Positions 3,715 through 56,706 are shown, numbered from the stretch's first letter. The stretch is DNA of 64,000 nucleotides from Candidatus Ryanbacteria bacterium RIFCSPHIGHO2_02_FULL_45_17b (GCA_001819815.1 MHNO01000009.1:147016-211015), one strand, 5' to 3'. Notes: a model not told the origin generated them from the sequence alone. Made by a program: numbers and translations.

Positions 3715-3730
3715 TTTCTCTTTGACCAAG

Positions 3731-3860
3731 GGCAACCTAACTCTTTTTACGGATTATGAAGCCCTTTTGGCCTGGTGTCCCGCTTTAGCGGGATCAAAAA
3801 GGCTTCATCCTCGGAGCCCGCGCCGGCGGGCGAGAATGAGTAAAAAGAGTTAGGTTGCCC
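3731..3860 (-). terminator. Structured, locally GC-rich intergenic element: 21-bp perfect inverted repeat (3731-3751 / 3840-3860) enclosing ~88 nt with three sub-hairpins
   Basis: gggcaacctaactctttttac ... gtaaaaagagttaggttgccc. The right arm overlaps the last codons and stop of the trx-like gene. Inner stems gaagcc/ggcttc, cccgc/gcggg, gcccgc/gcgggc. No U-tract. Confidence 0.4.
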
Positions 3861-23571: not shown

Positions 23572-23674
23572 GTGGATATTGTACCAAAAATAAACGAAAA
23601 TTCAATCTGTGATACTTGACAACATGTATAATCAGAGTATATTTGAGCCAAAACTGTTTTGAAAGGAGATATGT

Positions 23675-24118
23675 ATGGAAAACAGACTATATCCGAAGGA
23701 GGGAGAGGTGTTTGAGATGACAGGGGATTTTAATGTTAACACCCCTGAAAAGCTCATAAAAGTACTTGGCAGAACAGAAAACTGTGAATATGAGGGGACC
23801 CCATTGACAGGTATCCAAACAGCTAAATTCAAACTCCAGCGAGCAGGAGGCTTTGATGCTGGGAGCGTGCGCTGTTATATCCAAAAGAATTTTGGAGAGC
23901 CGGCTAGGGGACAGTGGATTCTTGTCTTTAAAGAGAATTTCCCTTTCCATGATAACCATTGGAGCATTGGATGTGCGGATGAATCCTGGAGATCGAAATC
24001 TCCTGCAAACTCGAATGGTGTCCTCGTAATTGGCACTAAGAAAGGAGCTATACATCTCGAGTACGAAGGAGATAATTTTTCATCACGTGAGTATATGTGG
24101 CTCGTACTGGTAGAATAG
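23675..24118 (+). CDS. Hypothetical protein (isolated + strand gene, strong SD GGAGA)
   Basis: 147-aa ORF preceded by aaaGGAGAtatgtATG; no recognisable domain. Confidence 0.45.
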   Translation: MENRLYPKEGEVFEMTGDFNVNTPEKLIKVLGRTENCEYEGTPLTGIQTAKFKLQRAGGFDAGSVRCYIQKNFGEPARGQWILVFKENFPFHDNHWSIGCADESWRSKSPANSNGVLVIGTKKGAIHLEYEGDNFSSREYMWLVLVE

Positions 24119-24182
24119 TACTATAGATGGCACACACAACCAGAGACAGTCCAGGCAGGCTGTCTCTTTTTTTATCCCTATA

Positions 24183-24370
24183 GTGTTTAAAAAACAATAA
24201 AATACATTTTTGCACAGATGCTTCGAAATTTAAAATTGTAAGAGTTTTGAAAAAAAATCGTAAACTCCTTCCTCTGGTCGTCAAACATACGATTTTTTGA
24301 CAAACCTCTAACAATTTTTAAAAATTTCTCCACAAAAGTGCAAAAATGTATTTTATTGTTTTTTAAACAC
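24183..24370. repeat. 33-bp perfect inverted repeat (24183-24215 / 24338-24370) enclosing a 122-nt AT-rich spacer with nested hairpins
   Basis: gtgtttaaaaaacaataaaatacatttttgcac ... gtgcaaaaatgtattttattgttttttaaacac. Sits between two convergent genes; the right arm overlaps the GtrA stop region. Confidence 0.6.
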
Positions 24371-24964
24371 AAACAATTTATAGCCGAAAAAGTTCCAAAA
24401 GAGCGACACGGCAGTAGCGATAATTTTTGCCGCGCCAAGTACCCTGCTTGGCGCAATAATATCAAGCCGTAACAGAAAGGTACCCGCCCAAAAAGCGACA
24501 CCGCTGTTAATACCAATGCTTAACAAGGTGATCAGTAAAAATCCCATGAACTCTTTGGTACTGGGAGGCGCTTTCTCGCTAAACGTCCACGTGCGTTGCC
24601 AAAAATAACTATTCACAATAGCAACAGCGCCTGATGCTACGAAAAGATACAATATACGCGGATCGTCAAGGCTAATGCCCGTGTAATACTGCAAGGTGTA
24701 GACAATGCCGGTATCAACAGAAAAATTCATAAGACCGACAATGCCAAAACGCCCCAATTGCTTGAGCGCGGTCACATGGGAAAATAATTTTGAAGCGATG
24801 ACATACGCGACATATTCGCCCGCCGGTAATATGATAAAAAGCGACCATATCGGCAGATTGAAACTTCCGTATGCAAGCGGCGTACGGGAAAAAACAAGAA
24901 TTGGCGTTATAAAAACCGCCGTAATGAATCCGATAATCGCTGCAATAGTATAATCGTTACGCAT
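24353..24964 (-). CDS. GtrA-family membrane protein
   Basis: RFGIVGLMNFSVDTGIVYTL and C-terminal FWNFFGYKLFVFKK, GtrA-like. Confidence 0.55.
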   Translation of the reverse strand: MRNDYTIAAIIGFITAVFITPILVFSRTPLAYGSFNLPIWSLFIILPAGEYVAYVIASKLFSHVTALKQLGRFGIVGLMNFSVDTGIVYTLQYYTGISLDDPRILYLFVASGAVAIVNSYFWQRTWTFSEKAPPSTKEFMGFLLITLLSIGINSGVAFWAGTFLLRLDIIAPSRVLGAAKIIATAVSLFWNFFGYKLFVFKKQ

Positions 24965-24984: not shown

Positions 24985-27429
24985 CTATCCTTCATGTTCA
25001 TACCGTTTCATAATCTCCGCCTCTACTTCTTCTTTCGGCCGGCCATATTTAATGCGCGAATATTCTTTTACCGCTTCGGCGACGACCTTATCACCGTCGG
25101 GTGATAAAAATATGTGCATGCTAAAAGGCCGAGACGTCTGACCCTTAATCAACAGGCGCATGTAGGCATTGCCATTATCGAGATTAATCAAATCTTGGGC
25201 GGTAAAGACAGGAGCGAATTGTTGTTCCATAAATTCCGCATCCTCCACTCCAATACGAAGCGAGGCCATCGATCCTACGTTGCCGAATACCGCTTTTTTA
25301 ATATCATCAGAGAGCTGGCCGATAAATTGATGCGATATCACCAGATTGAGACGATACTTGCGCGCTTCTGAAAGAATAGTGGCAATAGAGGGCGTAGTCA
25401 CATTTTGAAACTCATCAATATAGAAGAAAAAATCATTGCGTGTTTCGCGCTCCACGTTTACGCGAGAGAGGGCGGCAAGCAAGAGTTTACCGACAATGAT
25501 GAGCCCGAGCAAACTTGAATTAAGCTCGCCCAAGCGGCCCTTGGAAAGATTGATCAATAAAATCTTTTTCTCGTCCATTACTTTTCGAAAATTGAAGCTC
25601 GAGTGCTGTTGGGCAATCATCGGGCGCATAATGTCGTTGGCTAAAAACACATCGAACTTTGATGTAATGTATGGAACGATATTGGCAAGTGATGCTTCCC
25701 CGCCGGCTTTCTCCGCCACATCGCGCCAAAATGTTTTGACCACCACGTTGGTGCATTTTGAAAGTTTATAGTCACGATATGTTTTATCAGCCATAACGCG
25801 TCCTACCTCCAAAAGAGTTGCAATCTCGGTAGGGTCATCTATAGCCAGCATGGTTGCATTGCGAAAATACTGCTCAAACATCGGCCCCATCGATTCAGGA
25901 ACGCCGCCGTAGAGCTTCTGAAATATGCTAAAGAGTTCATTAACCACAAATGTTTTTTGCTCAGGAAACTGCGGATCATATTCAAGCATGTTAAGCGCCA
26001 AGGGTCGGTCAATGTCTCCCGGATTAAAATAAATCACATCCTCCATGCGCTCTCGCGGTATAAGAGTGAGCAACTTTTCGATAGACTCGCCGTGCGGATC
26101 AATAAAACAAACCCCATCGCCATTTTTAATATCTTGGCGCGCCATTTCTTCCAAGAAATTTGACTTACCGGTACCGGTCTGACCTATCACATAGAGATGA
26201 CGTCTCCGATCATCACGTTCAAAATGCAAAGGCGAGTGCTCCCCGCGAAATACATTTTCCCCGAGCACAATACCTTCTGTAGGTAAGTTTGCCGGGGAAG
26301 GAGCTTCCCGCGCTTTTACATATTTTACTTTAGATGCTGATAATGCGCCTATGGGAAAATGGTACAAGCTCGTAAGCTCTTCCGTGCTTAAATACACAGC
26401 TTGCTTTTCTTGAAACATCCTAAATGAAAATTGGTATGCCAGTTCTTCCAGTGAGCTCCCACGTTTCCGCTCTACGATAAAACTGTTTGCCTGTGGGTCG
26501 GAAAACTGCAAAAACGCATCTTCCAAACTTTGCAAAATATCAAGCGCTTCTTCTTGTGTTGCCGCGGAGGCAAGCAGACGGATGTTTACGTCAAACCCCG
26601 CGCGGGCGGCTTTTTCTTCCACCTGCTTTACCAATTCTTCATCCACCGGATCAGGTGACTTTTGAAATTCGTCTTCTTTTTGTTTTTTCTTCGGACCAGA
26701 AATAAACTCTCCCATGACATTTGTAGCCGCTCCTTGCCATGAATCAGTTTTGCTAATTTCTTTCAAGCTTTTGCCTTTCTTCAAAAATCGAGCCGTCTGC
26801 TTGCCTTTTTCTTGCCACTCACTGCTCGCCGGCCTTACCACTAACTGAATAGCGGCTCCATCTCCTTCTTTTTTCATTTTTGAAAACGCCGTTGTCAATA
26901 CCTCAAGCGGATCTGCCTCCAACCGGCGATAACTTTTAATAGGAAAAAATGGCGCGCGTTTGAGGCGCAAGGTAGAGCCCACCGTAACCCCGTCTTCGTT
27001 AAAAATATTGTAATCTTTTATTTGTTCCACCCGCGCATGTGGAAACAACGCGCTGACTTTTTTTTCAAACACACGGCTCCACTTGCGAGGCACAGCCACA
27101 TAAAACGTGGTTTCTTCACCCACGGATGGAAGAGCAATTTCAAGCGCAAAAGAAGGCCGATCGGTAAGAAATCCAAGCGTGCGCACTTCATCGCGCGACA
27201 CCATGCCGGCGTAAAACTGTTCCATGATGGAAATAATATCTTTTGGATCCCGCCGTTCTTGTTCGTTTGCCGTCGATTCCTGCGGTAACAGAACTACGTA
27301 AAGCACCAACTGCAACGAACCCGACACGCGGTTATGTTCCCGCGCCCGCTGAAAAAAATACCACACTGCCGTACCCGCGCCGGCCCCGAAAGCAATAAAG
27401 ATGAGAAGATAAAAAAGACTTGATGTCAT
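24985..27429 (-). CDS. Membrane-anchored FtsK/HerA-superfamily P-loop ATPase, VirB4/VirD4 (type IV secretion / coupling protein)-like
   Basis: N-terminal TM; Walker A VIGQTGTGKSNF; CFIDPHGES; Walker B FFFYIDEFQN; 814 aa. Confidence 0.5.
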   Translation of the reverse strand: MTSSLFYLLIFIAFGAGAGTAVWYFFQRAREHNRVSGSLQLVLYVVLLPQESTANEQERRDPKDIISIMEQFYAGMVSRDEVRTLGFLTDRPSFALEIALPSVGEETTFYVAVPRKWSRVFEKKVSALFPHARVEQIKDYNIFNEDGVTVGSTLRLKRAPFFPIKSYRRLEADPLEVLTTAFSKMKKEGDGAAIQLVVRPASSEWQEKGKQTARFLKKGKSLKEISKTDSWQGAATNVMGEFISGPKKKQKEDEFQKSPDPVDEELVKQVEEKAARAGFDVNIRLLASAATQEEALDILQSLEDAFLQFSDPQANSFIVERKRGSSLEELAYQFSFRMFQEKQAVYLSTEELTSLYHFPIGALSASKVKYVKAREAPSPANLPTEGIVLGENVFRGEHSPLHFERDDRRRHLYVIGQTGTGKSNFLEEMARQDIKNGDGVCFIDPHGESIEKLLTLIPRERMEDVIYFNPGDIDRPLALNMLEYDPQFPEQKTFVVNELFSIFQKLYGGVPESMGPMFEQYFRNATMLAIDDPTEIATLLEVGRVMADKTYRDYKLSKCTNVVVKTFWRDVAEKAGGEASLANIVPYITSKFDVFLANDIMRPMIAQQHSSFNFRKVMDEKKILLINLSKGRLGELNSSLLGLIIVGKLLLAALSRVNVERETRNDFFFYIDEFQNVTTPSIATILSEARKYRLNLVISHQFIGQLSDDIKKAVFGNVGSMASLRIGVEDAEFMEQQFAPVFTAQDLINLDNGNAYMRLLIKGQTSRPFSMHIFLSPDGDKVVAEAVKEYSRIKYGRPKEEVEAEIMKRYEHEG

Positions 27430-27863: not shown

Positions 27864-27910
27864 GGTTTTAGTATAGCAAGATAGAAAATAAAAAGCGATT
27901 ACTGTATATA

Positions 27911-28052
27911 CCGTGAATTATGGAACACACCCTCATCCGATGACCGCCACGCGAATTGATAATGAGTTGAACAAGACGTTATATTGTACTTGCATATGCA
28001 AATCGATGGGAGGTCATCAGATGAGAGGAATACATGTGTTTCGTAATTTAAA
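27911..28052 (+). mobile_element. MITE copy 2 (142 bp; internal hairpin module deleted; degraded TSD gtatatac/tatatag)
   Basis: High identity to copies 1 and 3 across both termini and the gatgggaggtcatcagatgagaggaatacatgtgtttcgtaatttaaag end. Confidence 0.65.
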
Positions 28053-28101
28053 GTATATAGGTATATGTACGCATACTATATACGCATGATACAATGGTCA
28101 T

Positions 28102-29859
28102 ATGGCGTCATCAAAGAAGCATTTTTTAGTTTTTGTTGGCATCCTCCTTCTTGCCATATTCTTTCGTTTCTGGCACATAACAGATATTCCCCCGGGATTA
28201 TATCCCGATGAAGCGATGAACGGCTCAAACGCGCTCCAGGCGCTTGAAAGCGGAAATTTCCGCGCTTACTATATAGACAATAACGGACGCGAAGGGTTGT
28301 TTATTAATCTGCAAGCTCTTGCCATTTGGTTTTTGGGAAATGAAGCGTGGGTATTACGGTTTGTAAGTGCGATATTTGGGATAGTAGCAGTTTGGGGGAT
28401 TTTTTTGCTGACACGAGAATTATTTTGGGACGGCGACTCGCAAACTCAAAGCTCAAAACTCAAAGCTCAAAACTACAACTCAAAATTAAAAACCGAAATA
28501 ATTGCCCTCCTCTCTTCTTTTTTCCTTGCCACCAGTTACTGGCACGTTACACTTTCTCGTCTTGGGTTTCGCGCAATTACCACGCCCACGTTTTCCATTT
28601 TGGCGTTTTATTTTCTGTTCCGCGGCATGCGGAGAAACTCCATGGTTGATTTCGCGCTTTCGGGCATCATGCTAGGCCTTGGCCTCAACGGTTACATCGC
28701 GTTCCGGTTTCTTCCGTTCGCGTTTGCGGTGCCTGTTCTTATCGGCCTTTGGCGATGGTGGAATACAAAACCACGCGGCACAGAATGGAAGGCTTCCGGC
28801 ATAGGATTTTCGGAGGGCGGCGTTGGGGTGGTGGGCGAAGAAAATTCTATGCCGGAAGCCCCAAATACGTGTTTCCCATGCGCGGTTGTGTTAATAGGAA
28901 TTTTTGTCATTGCCACCTGCACCCCGCTTATCATGTATTTTACGGAACACCCGAATGATTTTGCCACGCGCACCGGACAGGTTTCTGTATTTGCCGATGA
29001 GCACCCGCTCCGCGCGTTTGCGGTATCAAACATAAAAACAATCGGCATGGTGAGTGTGTTTGGTGACTGTAATTCACGGCATAATTTTCCTTGTTTCCCC
29101 GTACTACACCCGTTTTTGGCGCTTGGATTTTTTTATGGATTATTTTTGATGATAAAAAAACCAACCAGTCTTACCTTTGCCACATTACTTGCCTGGTTAT
29201 TTTTTCTTTCACTTCCCGCTACTCTTACGCGTGAGGGCATGCCGCACGCCCTGCGTTCCATCGGCATGATTCCGCCCGTAATGATTATTGCCGCGTTTGG
29301 CGCGTATGTGTTTTGGGAAAAGTTATTTTCTGACAAAAAAATCCCCCTTACTCCCCCTTTTTCAAAGGGGGAACTCCTCCCTTTGAAAAAGGGAGGCTGG
29401 GAGGGATTTCAAAATAAAAAAACAACAATTTTTTTTCTTTTGCTTGTTTCCATTCCACTCACAACAGGATATTTATATTTTAATGTATGGGCAAAAGCGC
29501 CTTCCACCGCATCCGCTTTCTCACAAGATTTGTCGGAACTTGCAATGTATGTGCGTTCACTCCCGAAAGAAACTAAAAAATATCTTATTGTGGAACTTGA
29601 TCACGAAGGCCTTCCTGTCTCGGCGCAATCGGTAGTGTATCTTACAAACACCGCAACCACTCAATCACAACATGAACATAATGTAACATACCTTCCGCGC
29701 GTGGGTACTCTGCGCCATATCACGCTTGATGATAAGCCTGCCATCATTGGTTTTGTGGCATTTCATGACAATGCGCTTGAACAAGAACTTGAGCGCGCGT
29801 TCCCTTCACTGATAAAAGAAACCTACGGAGGATTTACGGTGTACTCTTACAAACCATAA
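28102..29859 (+). CDS. Membrane glycosyltransferase, GT-C fold (ArnT/PMT, GT39/GT83-like)
   Basis: N-terminal block RFWHITDIPPGLYPDEAMNGSNA and many TM helices. Contains an in-frame 14-bp tandem repeat and an in-frame palindromic insert. Confidence 0.65.
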   Translation: MASSKKHFLVFVGILLLAIFFRFWHITDIPPGLYPDEAMNGSNALQALESGNFRAYYIDNNGREGLFINLQALAIWFLGNEAWVLRFVSAIFGIVAVWGIFLLTRELFWDGDSQTQSSKLKAQNYNSKLKTEIIALLSSFFLATSYWHVTLSRLGFRAITTPTFSILAFYFLFRGMRRNSMVDFALSGIMLGLGLNGYIAFRFLPFAFAVPVLIGLWRWWNTKPRGTEWKASGIGFSEGGVGVVGEENSMPEAPNTCFPCAVVLIGIFVIATCTPLIMYFTEHPNDFATRTGQVSVFADEHPLRAFAVSNIKTIGMVSVFGDCNSRHNFPCFPVLHPFLALGFFYGLFLMIKKPTSLTFATLLAWLFFLSLPATLTREGMPHALRSIGMIPPVMIIAAFGAYVFWEKLFSDKKIPLTPPFSKGELLPLKKGGWEGFQNKKTTIFFLLLVSIPLTTGYLYFNVWAKAPSTASAFSQDLSELAMYVRSLPKETKKYLIVELDHEGLPVSAQSVVYLTNTATTQSQHEHNVTYLPRVGTLRHITLDDKPAIIGFVAFHDNALEQELERAFPSLIKETYGGFTVYSYKP

Positions 29860-29869
29860 TGTCAGACTC

Positions 29870-29960
29870 CCACTTTATTTGTAAGAAAATTGTTCTACGA
29901 TGGCCTCTATTTGCTTATACCTGTCGGCCATAAAGAACAATTTTCTTACAAATAAAGTGG
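29870..29960. repeat. 27-bp perfect inverted repeat (29870-29896 / 29934-29960) with a 37-nt loop, between the tandem glycosyltransferase genes
   Basis: ccactttatttgtaagaaaattgttct ... agaacaattttcttacaaataaagtgg; loop carries a nested atggcc/ggccat stem. Confidence 0.6.
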
Positions 29961-33510: not shown

Positions 33511-34665
33511 TCATATAATTATGCGCGGTATTAATGGATTAATGCACGTGGTGATTTCATAATTGATCGTACTAATGCGACTTGCCAATTCTTCAGCGCT
33601 GATACATTCCCTGCCTTGCCGTCCTAAAAGCACCACTTCATCTCCGGGCTTCACGCCACGGAGCTTTGTGATATCAAGCATACAGATATTCATACAAATA
33701 TTGCCCACTATGGGTACACGCCTTCCGCCGACCAACACCGCGCCATTATTTGAAAATCCGCGGTCAAACCCGTCCCAATACCCGATGGGAATAACGGCGA
33801 TCTTCATCTCCTTCTGTGCTTTATAGGTGCGGTCATACCCAATAGTTTTTCCGGCCGGAATGGTTTTTACTTGAGCCACACGCGTCTTCCAGGTAAGAGC
33901 AGGTTTGAGTGCTACTTGCTTTTTTACTTTATCAGCTACTTCGGGAGATGGGTACATACCATAGAGCGCAATGCCCAAGCGTGCCATAGTAAAATGCGCC
34001 TCTGGATACAATAACAAAGCTGCGCTCGCGGCGGTGTGCAGATATTGCGGACGTACACCTTCCTCCTCAAAAATCTTGATCGCATTCTGGAAGGCCAAAA
34101 GCTGTTCTTTGTAGTAACGTGACTTTGGGTTTTCTGTATCGGCAAAATGTGTATAGGCTCCTTGGACTATTACCTGCGGCGCAGATTTTTTAAGCGCCCG
34201 AGCAAACGCACTCACATCTTCGGGCATCACACCCTGCCGATGAGTGCCTGTTTCGAGCTTAACGTGCACAAAAACTTTTTTACGCATTTTTTTCGCAAGG
34301 CGCGTAAGCTCTTTGAGCATTGGAATATCATACAAGCACACGCGAAAATTATTCCTGACTACATCCACCAGCATAGCAGATGGCACATAGCCGAGGATGA
34401 GAATTGGATTTTTTATGCCAGATTTTTTGAGTATGAGAGCTTCGTCAATTGAATCCACCCCAAACCAGACAATCGGAGGTTTCGCCTCCGAATAATATTC
34501 GGAGGCGAAACCTCCGATTGTCTTGATAACTTTGACAATACCATGACCATAGGCGTTGGATTTTACTATTGCCATTACAGCGACACCTTTGCCAAGATGT
34601 TTCGTGAGCGCCAAAAAATTATGCCGCAACGAGACGGCATCTACCTCAACCCAGGTTTTATACAT
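33511..34665 (-). CDS. alr: Alanine racemase
   Basis: PLP-lysine motif AIVKSNAYGHG. Confidence 0.8.
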   Translation of the reverse strand: MYKTWVEVDAVSLRHNFLALTKHLGKGVAVMAIVKSNAYGHGIVKVIKTIGGFASEYYSEAKPPIVWFGVDSIDEALILKKSGIKNPILILGYVPSAMLVDVVRNNFRVCLYDIPMLKELTRLAKKMRKKVFVHVKLETGTHRQGVMPEDVSAFARALKKSAPQVIVQGAYTHFADTENPKSRYYKEQLLAFQNAIKIFEEEGVRPQYLHTAASAALLLYPEAHFTMARLGIALYGMYPSPEVADKVKKQVALKPALTWKTRVAQVKTIPAGKTIGYDRTYKAQKEMKIAVIPIGYWDGFDRGFSNNGAVLVGGRRVPIVGNICMNICMLDITKLRGVKPGDEVVLLGRQGRECISAEELASRISTINYEITTCINPLIPRIII

Positions 34666-34732
34666 ATGAGAATTACGAACCATGAATTAAGAATCAAGGA
34701 TAAAAGACCCCTTTATTCTTACTTCTTGATTC

Positions 34733-42416: not shown

Positions 42417-42503
42417 AACCATCAAAAATGTGCTTAGAAAAAGTCTGGCCGAGCGATAGCGAAGGAGAGCCGAGGACTTTTTCTAAGCACATTTTTGATG
42501 GTT
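42417..42503. repeat. 29-bp perfect inverted repeat (42417-42445 / 42475-42503), 29-nt loop
   Basis: aaccatcaaaaatgtgcttagaaaaagtc ... gactttttctaagcacatttttgatggtt; between the aldolase-like gene stop and rplY start. Confidence 0.6.
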
Positions 42504-43463: not shown

Positions 43464-43559
43464 CTACCCCATTGCGTATACTAAACATGTTCTTTACGGC
43501 CAACAGGTGTATACATAGAAGGACGTCGTAGAACATGTTTAGTATACGCAATGGGGTAG
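43464..43559. repeat. 30-bp perfect inverted repeat (43464-43493 / 43530-43559), 36-nt loop
   Basis: ctaccccattgcgtatactaaacatgttct ... agaacatgtttagtatacgcaatggggtag; between glpX stop and the aldolase-like gene start. Confidence 0.6.
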
Positions 43560-56326: not shown

Positions 56327-56480
56327 AAATTCTCCTTATTCTTATTTGGTTTTCAACGCAAAAGATACTAATCCCATGTGTAGCATTTTTCCTGTTATTT
56401 GTCAAATTTTTACACTGCACTCGTGGGCTACGTAATGATTTCTGAACTTTTGACCGAGTAGACACATATAGCTACTTTAC

Positions 56481-56642
56481 CATGAATTACGAAACACACC
56501 CTCATCCGATGAACGTCACGCGAATTAATAACGTCTTGCGATGACCCAATTTGGTCATCGCAAGACGTTATATTGTGCTTGCGTATGCAAATCGATGGGA
56601 GGTCATCAGATGAGAGGAATACATGTGTTTCGTAATTTAAAG
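56481..56642 (+). mobile_element. MITE copy 3 (162 bp) flanked by a perfect 8-bp TSD tactttac (56473-56480 and 56643-56650)
   Basis: Same termini and internal 15-bp hairpin as copy 1; lacks a 19-bp segment present in copy 1. Confidence 0.7.
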
Positions 56643-56706
56643 TACTTTACATTCTATCCTCTTATTTTATACTTACATCAGGTCTAAAATATAATTAACC
56701 AAACAT

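Follow-up and report, generated by a model that had tools for sequence, protein, structure and literature searches.

The GtrA–dnaX locus

The DNA analysed here (hereafter the window) is a 64-kb stretch of a Candidatus Ryanbacteria genome, in which a GtrA-family gene (24353..24964, − strand; Pfam PF04138, GtrA_DPMS_TM, E 3.3e-17) and an orphan ORF of 147 aa (ORF147, 23675..24118, + strand) converge on a long hairpin of 188 nt (24183-24370). The closest of the 60 GtrA homologues retrieved belong to Candidatus Ryanbacteria (Patescibacteria/CPR) from Rifle aquifer metagenomes, and the C-terminus of the protein, FVF[KR]K[KQ], is conserved across all 60. ORF147 forms part of a variable cassette situated between GtrA and dnaX; it has no Pfam family, its sole database relative is its own 99% cluster, and no homologue suggestive of a function was found. 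A Pfam scan of nine neighbouring proteins places GtrA, the orphan ORF, dnaX, and a TrwB-like ATPase in the vicinity of the hairpin. The last of these, an 814-aa DUF8128/TrwB/VirD4-like ATPase (24985-27429), lies directly upstream of GtrA, a position that is conserved in all Ryanbacteria relatives examined and which indicates that it belongs to the core genome and not to a conjugative element. An origin of transfer (oriT), considered given the presence of this ATPase, was discarded, the ATPase neighbourhood being conserved core synteny in relatives that lack the hairpin.

Between ORF147 and the hairpin, 11 nt from the latter, there is a canonical intrinsic terminator of ORF147 (24142..24172, + strand), composed of AGAGACAG-loop-CTGTCTCT and a run of seven T, which is conserved at this position in relatives. 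Its T-run is good only in the ORF147 direction, leaving GtrA without an obvious terminator of its own. A consensus terminator scan calls this element (24142-24167 plus the T-run) and not the 188-nt hairpin. The sequence-only reading of this DNA had left three options open for the hairpin without choosing among them, and the first, a bidirectional terminator, receives no support in its canonical form, the stem being AT-rich and the U-tract lying inside the 3′ arm.

Structure of the hairpin

The two arms, one distal (24183-24215, no strand assigned) and one proximal to GtrA (24338-24370, − strand), are exact reverse complements over 33 nt, as found by reading of the sequence, by a repeat finder, and by a mismatch-tolerant pattern search; the arm pattern has two matches in the window against 0.00 expected (100 shuffles). 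They enclose an AT-rich core of 122 nt (24216..24337, no strand assigned), and the GC content of the whole hairpin is 0.26-0.27, compared to ~0.44 in the window. The GtrA ORF terminates inside the right arm, which contains its last five codons and the stop. Read on the − strand, 24370-24353 is GTG TTT AAA AAA CAA TAA, that is, the native V-F-K-K-Q-stop of GtrA, and 24352-24338 are the first 15 nt downstream of the stop, so that this arm is made of 18 nt of gene end and 15 nt of post-stop sequence. The exact arms, the AT-rich spacer, and the location between convergent genes with an overlap on the end of GtrA had all been noticed in the sequence-only reading, and stand as described there.

Inside the perfect 33-bp outer stem the pairing ends abruptly at a non-complementary internal loop of 9 × 9 nt (24216-24224 and 24329-24337): with both arms read in the same orientation, the agreement falls from 33/33 in the arms to 2/9 in these adjacent blocks. 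Pairing resumes in an inner stem of ~40 bp (24225-24262 with 24288-24328), with four mismatches and a 3-nt bulge, which is closed by an apical loop of 25 nt (24263-24287). The inner stem has diverged by ~10%, and all of its mismatches are transversions, which leaves no cushion of G-U pairing. The nested repeats claimed earlier for the spacer are indeed present, but they are imperfect, as the repeat finder gives 85% complementarity for 24229-24262 and 24288-24321 and the two 17-mers originally pointed out differ at two positions.

The 188 nt fold into one long hairpin on both strands, and the fold is identical within the GtrA mRNA context. The minimum free energies are −68.3 kcal/mol (+ strand) and −76.7 kcal/mol (− strand) for RNA and −53.8 for DNA, with z-scores of approximately −13.4 to −13.9 for the RNA folds of both strands and the DNA fold, and no shuffled sequence folds equally well. 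On both strands each arm shows an A-rich tract, the base of the stem, and a U-rich tract (UAUUUUAUUGUUUUUU); this last lies inside the 3′ arm and not after the stem, where CACUAUAGGGAU is found instead. The flanking sequences are ...CCCTATA on one side and AAACAATT... (AAAC) on the other. A consensus scan also detected promoter-like hexamers in the spacer on both strands, e.g., TTGACA-17-AAAAAT at 24297-24325, although such matches are to be expected in sequence of 26% GC.

Recovery in public contigs

Among public contigs, ten encode the same GtrA protein, with 99.9-100% identity to the window. Nine, from several samples and several assemblers, extend across the hairpin; over the 282 nt surrounding it they show 100% identity without exception, and they carry the spacer in the same orientation (9/9). 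An assembly artefact is ruled out by this identity, and the hairpin is real. All the public contigs that carry it are clonal, and no intermediate state was found among them. One Logan contig (L010, built from short k-mers) stops inside the hairpin, as expected from a true 33-nt inverted repeat. Elsewhere in this otherwise clonal population, contig L004 has one copy of a 14-nt tandem unit (CAAAGCTCAAAACT; 28461-28474) where the window has two, and its PMT-family gene of 585 aa is thereby split into two ORFs (405 and 177 aa); this is a slippage polymorphism.

Empty sites in related genomes

In Ryanbacteria the interval between GtrA and dnaX (23572-24352 here) behaves as a hot spot for cassettes, with at least four states: empty, with an intact ORF147, with a frameshifted ORF147, or with unrelated genes (L020 and L021). 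We compared it with the corresponding intervals of relatives (among them L011, L014, L017, L020, L021, L022, and L023), and the 188-nt hairpin was absent from every locus described below. In ten loci whose GtrA is 77-90% identical (L014-L019, L022, L023, L025, and L026) dnaX begins 11-68 nt after GtrA, and in L014, L017, L022, and L023 there is no ORF147 and GtrA abuts dnaX. In a second group, with 90% identical GtrA (L011-L013, L027, L028, and L085-L088), the GtrA stop is followed by 3 nt and a terminator hairpin (AAAAAGAGACAG...CTGTCTCTGG), and a frameshifted homologue of ORF147 is found downstream of that terminator in loci of the L011 type, including L011 and L085. Finally, in L021 (GtrA 87% identical) the gene ends in GTGTTTAAAAAACAATAG and is followed by 14 nt, a similar terminator, and an unrelated gene, while in L020 (76%) it ends in GTGTTTAAAAAACAGTAA and other cassette genes follow. 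Terminators orthologous to 24142-24172 lie directly 3′ of the GtrA stop in L011, L012, L027, L028, and L021.

The most informative comparison is with L021, whose empty site reads ...GTGTTTAAAAAACAATAG-AACATG-TATGGTAT-AAAAAAAGACAG where the window has ...GTGTTTAAAAAACAATAA-[170 nt]-TATAGGGAT-AAAAAAAGAGACAG. Aligned in this way, the window holds ~170 extra nt between the GtrA stop and TATAGGGAT-AAAAAAAGAGACAG (equivalent to TATGGTAT-AAAAAAAGACAG of L021), so that, as judged from these alignments, the closest relatives lack ~170 nt that stand here between the gene and its pre-existing terminator. The hairpin is therefore extra DNA specific to this lineage, with clean empty sites in relatives whose GtrA is 87-90% identical. 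A loss of the hairpin in the L011 and L021 lineages, instead of a gain here, is less parsimonious, although long hairpins are deletion-prone.

The same alignments bear on the provenance of the arms. Relatives that lack the hairpin end GtrA with the same VFKKQ-stop codons (...CAATAG in L021 and ...CAGTAA in L020), and the 18 coding nt of the right arm are accordingly native; it is the distal arm that holds the inverted duplicate, its outer 18 nt (24183-24200) corresponding to the coding end of GtrA. No distal arm exists in L021 or L011, in which the terminator is within 4-14 nt of the stop. The far end of the extra DNA is then an exact inverted copy of 18 native nt from the end of GtrA plus 15 post-stop nt. 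A possible homology between the 3′UTR of L020 and the GtrA-proximal half of the hairpin was also considered and rejected, the same similarity being reached by 53-62 of 500 dinucleotide shuffles.

Copy number and database searches

Searches with nhmmer and blastn-short revealed no second copy of the hairpin, either in the window or among ~0.5 Mb of related loci, and it is therefore single-copy within these ~0.6 Mb; from the source genome itself, the sequence searched comprised the 64 kb plus flanks. Multiple divergent copies, which the sequence-only reading had regarded as the observation that would speak against it, are thus not seen in the window or in the related loci. Beyond these, a terminus-anchored pattern (ACATTTTTGCAC-N{107,137}-GTGCAAAAATGT) was scanned in 185,579 species genomes (596 Gb) and gave one match, in a Njordarchaeota MAG (L024, JAHKLH010000115.1), the source genome itself not being matched. 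The matching structure (1443-1609 of L024) has inverted repeats of 24 nt if perfect or ~30 nt if imperfect, which end in the same TACATTTTTGCAC, and an unrelated interior; 123 nt separate the matched 12-mers, compared to 122 nt in our hairpin, and 119 nt separate the perfect arms. Among the many inverted-repeat structures present in 596 Gb this match is probably due to chance, though the matching spacing is odd.

Viral contigs scanned with the termini, the loop, and the inner stem of the hairpin gave nothing related, the seven matches to the inner-stem pattern being ordinary A-tract/T-tract terminators, and the phage and plasmid BLAST collections returned nothing meaningful. Neither the window and the ~0.5 Mb of related loci nor the collections of viruses, phages, and plasmids thus yielded a source sequence for the core (122-152 nt, depending on how its limits are drawn). 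A literature search retrieved no paper on palindromes in Patescibacteria.

The extremely stable fold on both strands and the promoter-like sites in the interior could suggest that the hairpin encodes a discrete small RNA, which was another of the options in the sequence-only reading. We consider this highly improbable. No Rfam family reaches the gathering score (the only match in the window being a tRNA), and the sub-threshold matches are all plant miRNA-precursor models, the best of them MIR2646 with 27 bits against a threshold of 245 bits, which reflect a generic long hairpin. Furthermore, there is no homologue in the relatives with 87-90% identical GtrA, and the fact that both strands fold equally well marks a palindrome in the DNA and not an RNA under selection.

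Other palindromes in the window

The hairpin is not an isolated case. If the arms are required to measure 18 nt or more and the spacer no more than 250 nt, the window contains eight perfect inverted repeats against ~2e-4 expected, while few of that kind were found in 436 kb of other Patescibacteria loci. Two of the hairpins in the window (29870-29960 and 43464-43559) have a common core of ~48 nt, TGTTCT-N36-AGAACA, surrounded by perfect outer arms that are unrelated to one another; this core gave nothing in the viral contigs. Orthologues of the 29870 hairpin are present in L086 (713-805) and L087, with arms in which 7 of 27 positions do not match the window and which are nevertheless complementary within each lineage, and with the loop inverted relative to its flanks. 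L097 is more distant, and there only 23 nt (3838-3860) lie between the two PMT genes; of the hairpin, they are homologous to a single arm, the one next to the stop codon. One arm of this hairpin is thus native flank, and the insertion consists of the core and an inverted copy of that flank; it is an independent second case with the same logic as the 188-nt hairpin at GtrA.

In one relative (L085, 1644-1759; also L088, 110-225) the left arm of the PMT-intergenic hairpin is gone, and its former loop is occupied by a further inverted-repeat element, which has perfect arms of 25 nt and a 66-nt spacer. A 20-nt stretch in the inner arm of the 188-nt hairpin matches this element of L085 at 18 of 20 positions, a score reached by none of 300 shuffles; the match is only local, and there is no global alignment between both elements.

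The loop inversion seen among relatives at 29870 brings up another explanation for the GtrA hairpin, namely that it is an invertible switch, the 122-nt spacer being flipped between the 33-bp repeats by a recombinase so as to change the orientation of the promoters. Perfect repeats around a short segment with promoter-like hexamers on both strands are what such a switch would look like. Nevertheless, the nine contigs, from different samples, are all in one orientation, no recombinase was found by Pfam among the nine neighbouring proteins, the spacer is so nearly palindromic that a flip would change little, and promoter-like matches are to be expected at this base composition. Of all the explanations considered, this is the one to which we give the least credit.

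A different type of palindrome is found within a coding sequence. The alanine racemase gene (alr, 33511-34683, − strand) contains a perfect, in-frame palindrome of 57 nt (34467-34523) encoding KTIGGFASEYYSEAKPPIV, each arm of which is itself a small hairpin. Orthologous palindromes occupy the same codons in L089 and L097 (Alr 60% identical; 54 nt) and in L098 (55% identical; 47 nt), the latter having been foretold from the protein sequence and then found in the DNA. The sequences differ among the three lineages, and every difference in one arm is mirrored in the opposite arm. The scaffold L007 has an N-gap exactly at the alr palindrome. Its location inside a coding gene points to a process acting at the level of DNA.

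Two further long perfect hairpins, 42417-42503 and 3730-3860, each occupy a short gap between genes that run in the same direction. One has arms of 29 nt and a 29-nt loop, the other arms of 21-26 nt and a GC-rich structured spacer of 79-89 nt. Neither has a U-tract after it or an Rfam family at the gathering score.

Lastly, the window contains a MITE-like family, here called M1, with three copies in 64 kb (2809-2995, 27909-28054, and 56478-56643) of 146-187 nt. They are long hairpins (−76 to −92 kcal/mol for the two copies folded) with common, element-specific termini (TACCATGAATTACGAAACACA...TGTGTTTCGTAATTTAAAGT), and two of the three copies are bordered by direct duplications of 4 bp (CAGA and ACTT); the third copy has its perfect central palindrome deleted. 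M1 has no Rfam family and was not found in the loci of relatives. It is a genuine family of MITE-like mobile hairpins, and together with the core common to two other hairpins it indicates that small hairpin elements do spread in this lineage.

It could be argued that the 188-nt hairpin is one more of these, i.e., a mobile palindrome of the MITE or RPE type, non-autonomous, that inserted after the GtrA stop and whose further copies would be found in other parts of the genome, the extension of the arms being secondary. It is extra DNA with respect to relatives, it has the AT-richness, size, and terminal inverted repeats of a MITE, and the 18/20 match to the nested element of L085 also goes in this direction. 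However, the hairpin fails each of the criteria by which M1 is recognized. There is no direct target-site duplication (TSD; the flanks are TATA and AAAC), no second copy with common termini in the window or the ~0.5 Mb of relatives, and nothing related in the terminus scans of the genome and viral collections. The terminal repeats do not belong to the element either, given that 18 of the 33 nt in one of them are native GtrA codons, present at empty sites. A model with a palindromic TSD (TA or TTTAAA) was discarded for a similar reason, as it needs an element-borne AAACAATAA, which is native in L021 and L020. Of the suggestion made from the sequence alone, a hairpin-type mobile element with no visible TSD, the additional DNA and the missing TSD are thus real, but single-copy status and native arm nucleotides disagree with it, and we regard a mobile element as unlikely. 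Taken together, the interpretation offered by the sequence-only reading is partly supported.

Origin of the hairpin

We favour, with somewhat better than even confidence, an origin of the hairpin as a young, single-copy quasi-palindrome generated by DNA replication or repair, and not by transposition or by selection on an RNA. The perfect outer stem, the abrupt 9 × 9-nt break, and the inner stem diverged by ~10% point to two or more events that differ in age. In the first, an AT-rich, hairpin-forming core would have been inserted after the GtrA stop, this core being either the 122-nt spacer alone or, if the 15 non-coding nt on each side are counted with it, a stretch of 152 nt. In a later one, a template switch to the nascent or the complementary strand would have copied the upstream flank as its reverse complement, so that the stem grew outward to take in the end of GtrA. 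Template switches at different times would be expected to produce what is found here, i.e., pairing that ends abruptly, a coding source for the arm, and an older inner stem already decayed. The 9 × 9-nt unpaired blocks rule out a simple, single snap-back from the inner hairpin, and would require an inter-strand switch or two separate events.

Should the hairpin be of this origin, it might still have acquired a role. The 3′ end of the GtrA mRNA, stop included, would sit in the base of a hairpin of approximately −77 kcal/mol, upstream of the shared terminator, and such a structure could serve to protect that end or to hinder transcription from running on into the convergent ORF147. A more demanding version is that the hairpin is a selected insulator, a long-stem bidirectional terminator, or a stabiliser of the mRNA 3′ end, recruited after the ORF147 cassette made GtrA convergent. 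The hairpin is found exactly between the convergent genes and folds identically in the GtrA mRNA, its arms have the bidirectional layout (A-rich, stem base, U-rich UAUUUUAUUGUUUUUU) on both strands, the neighbouring terminator serves ORF147 and leaves GtrA without an obvious one, and other long hairpins of the window also come shortly after stop codons (10-41 nt). On the other hand, L011 and L085 carry the same convergent cassette with no hairpin, and a palindrome of the same kind is found inside a coding gene (alr), both of which weaken the case for a function. The consensus scan does not call the hairpin, its AT-rich 33-bp stem surrounds an interior of 122 nt with no U-tract after it, and the inner mismatches, all transversions, have no G-U cushioning. 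This recruited terminator or stabiliser seems to us improbable, and a selected function of any sort is hardly more credible than that. That the hairpin is a neutral by-product of a process at the DNA level is, in our estimate, slightly more probable than not.

A broader possibility, quite unlikely at present, is that the palindromes of this lineage reflect a single process in which hairpin cores land and then gain perfect arms by inverted copying of one flank, which would effectively be an inverted target duplication and may constitute a class so far undescribed. Under such a process the palindromes would stay perfect despite drift, even in the essential alr gene, and the 188-nt hairpin would be a fresh product. 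If true, this would mean either a new kind of mobile element or a peculiarity of replication and repair in CPR that makes long hairpins at a high rate.

Considered on its own, the hairpin that we attribute to template switching amounts to a minor accident of evolution in a single uncultivated bacterium. It nevertheless illustrates cleanly in nature, with empty sites for comparison, how a perfect stem of 33 bp can arise in one step from the end of a gene, and it bears on the origin of long hairpins, terminators, and MITE-like structures. It also has company in the eight perfect inverted repeats within 64 kb, the second hairpin built on native flank, and the alr palindrome maintained in three lineages. 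Were the pattern to hold generally, the birth and maintenance of palindromes could be followed in CPR genomes as in a natural experiment, and these genomes might also reveal missing hairpin-processing functions. There is also a practical side, as such repeats break short-read assemblies, illustrated by the end of L010 in the hairpin and the gap of L007 at the alr palindrome.

Comparison with known systems

Correction of quasi-palindromes is a well-known mutational process, described by the Ripley model and followed in E. coli with the thyA and lacZ QP reporters. Template switching, which is also known to generate RNA hairpins, produces perfect reverse-complement stems, extension of stems, inversion of loops, and multi-base compensatory changes (PMC8794818, Monttinen & Loytynoja 2022). 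In E. coli, quasi-palindrome mutations arise by a templated mechanism and "universally perfect the palindromic sequence" (PMC6357072), and they are restrained by RecBCD and Exonuclease I, as stated in that article and in a reference cited there. The 188-nt hairpin resembles template-switch mutations in having a perfect inverted copy of a nearby sequence, with abrupt ends, an intact source (the VFKKQ-stop end kept in L021 and L020), and a copy that is new. The related hairpins of the window display the extension of stems, the inversion of loops, and the "compensatory" multi-base changes, and the process is blind to the distinction between coding and non-coding DNA. The differences are of size and of completeness: a copied tract of 33 nt and a structure of 188 nt are large for the template-switch events described in bacteria, and only the arm can be derived from a nearby source, the core of ~122-152 nt being left unexplained.

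The second class of comparison is that of MITEs and small palindromic repeats (Correia/NEMIS, ERIC, RUP, REP/BIME, and the Rickettsia palindromic elements), with which the hairpin has in common that it is short, AT-rich, and non-coding, has terminal inverted repeats, forms a long hairpin, and is inserted at the end of a gene. It departs from them in lacking a direct TSD (flanks ...CCCTATA / AAACAATT...) and other copies in the sequence searched, and in that one of its repeats is partly native gene. With bidirectional Rho-independent terminators it shares the position between convergent genes and, on both strands, the A-rich 5′ arm and U-rich 3′ arm. These terminators, however, have GC-rich stems of 5-14 bp and loops of 3-8 nt followed by a U-tract, whereas here a 33-bp AT-rich stem (GC of the hairpin 0.26) has a 122-nt interior and no U-tract after it, and a conserved canonical terminator already exists 11 nt away.

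Other systems built on inverted repeats are further removed. Invertons occur in both orientations with a recombinase nearby, in contrast to the single orientation in 9/9 contigs seen here. The ends of the hairpin (GTGTTTA... / ...TAAACAC) do not fit the RYYYAAC ... GTTRRRY arrangement of attC sites, as they have no GTTRRRY core, and Pfam detects no integrase among the neighbouring genes. No reverse-transcriptase gene is adjacent, as would be expected for the msr-msd of a retron.

Small inversions associated with hairpins and homogenisation of their arms are known in non-coding chloroplast DNA, as is arm-to-arm gene conversion in large palindromes. The 29870 hairpin behaves similarly, with arms that remain perfect despite drift and a loop that flips between lineages, while neither effect is seen at the 188-nt hairpin, for which there are no orthologues, and the organism and scale differ. 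We know of no described category for the recurrent pattern of a core plus an inverted copy of one flank, nor of any description of perfect palindromes persisting across lineages in a CPR bacterium. Template switching, as a class of mechanism, is already known; the recurrent pattern of core and inverted flank is, to our knowledge, new.
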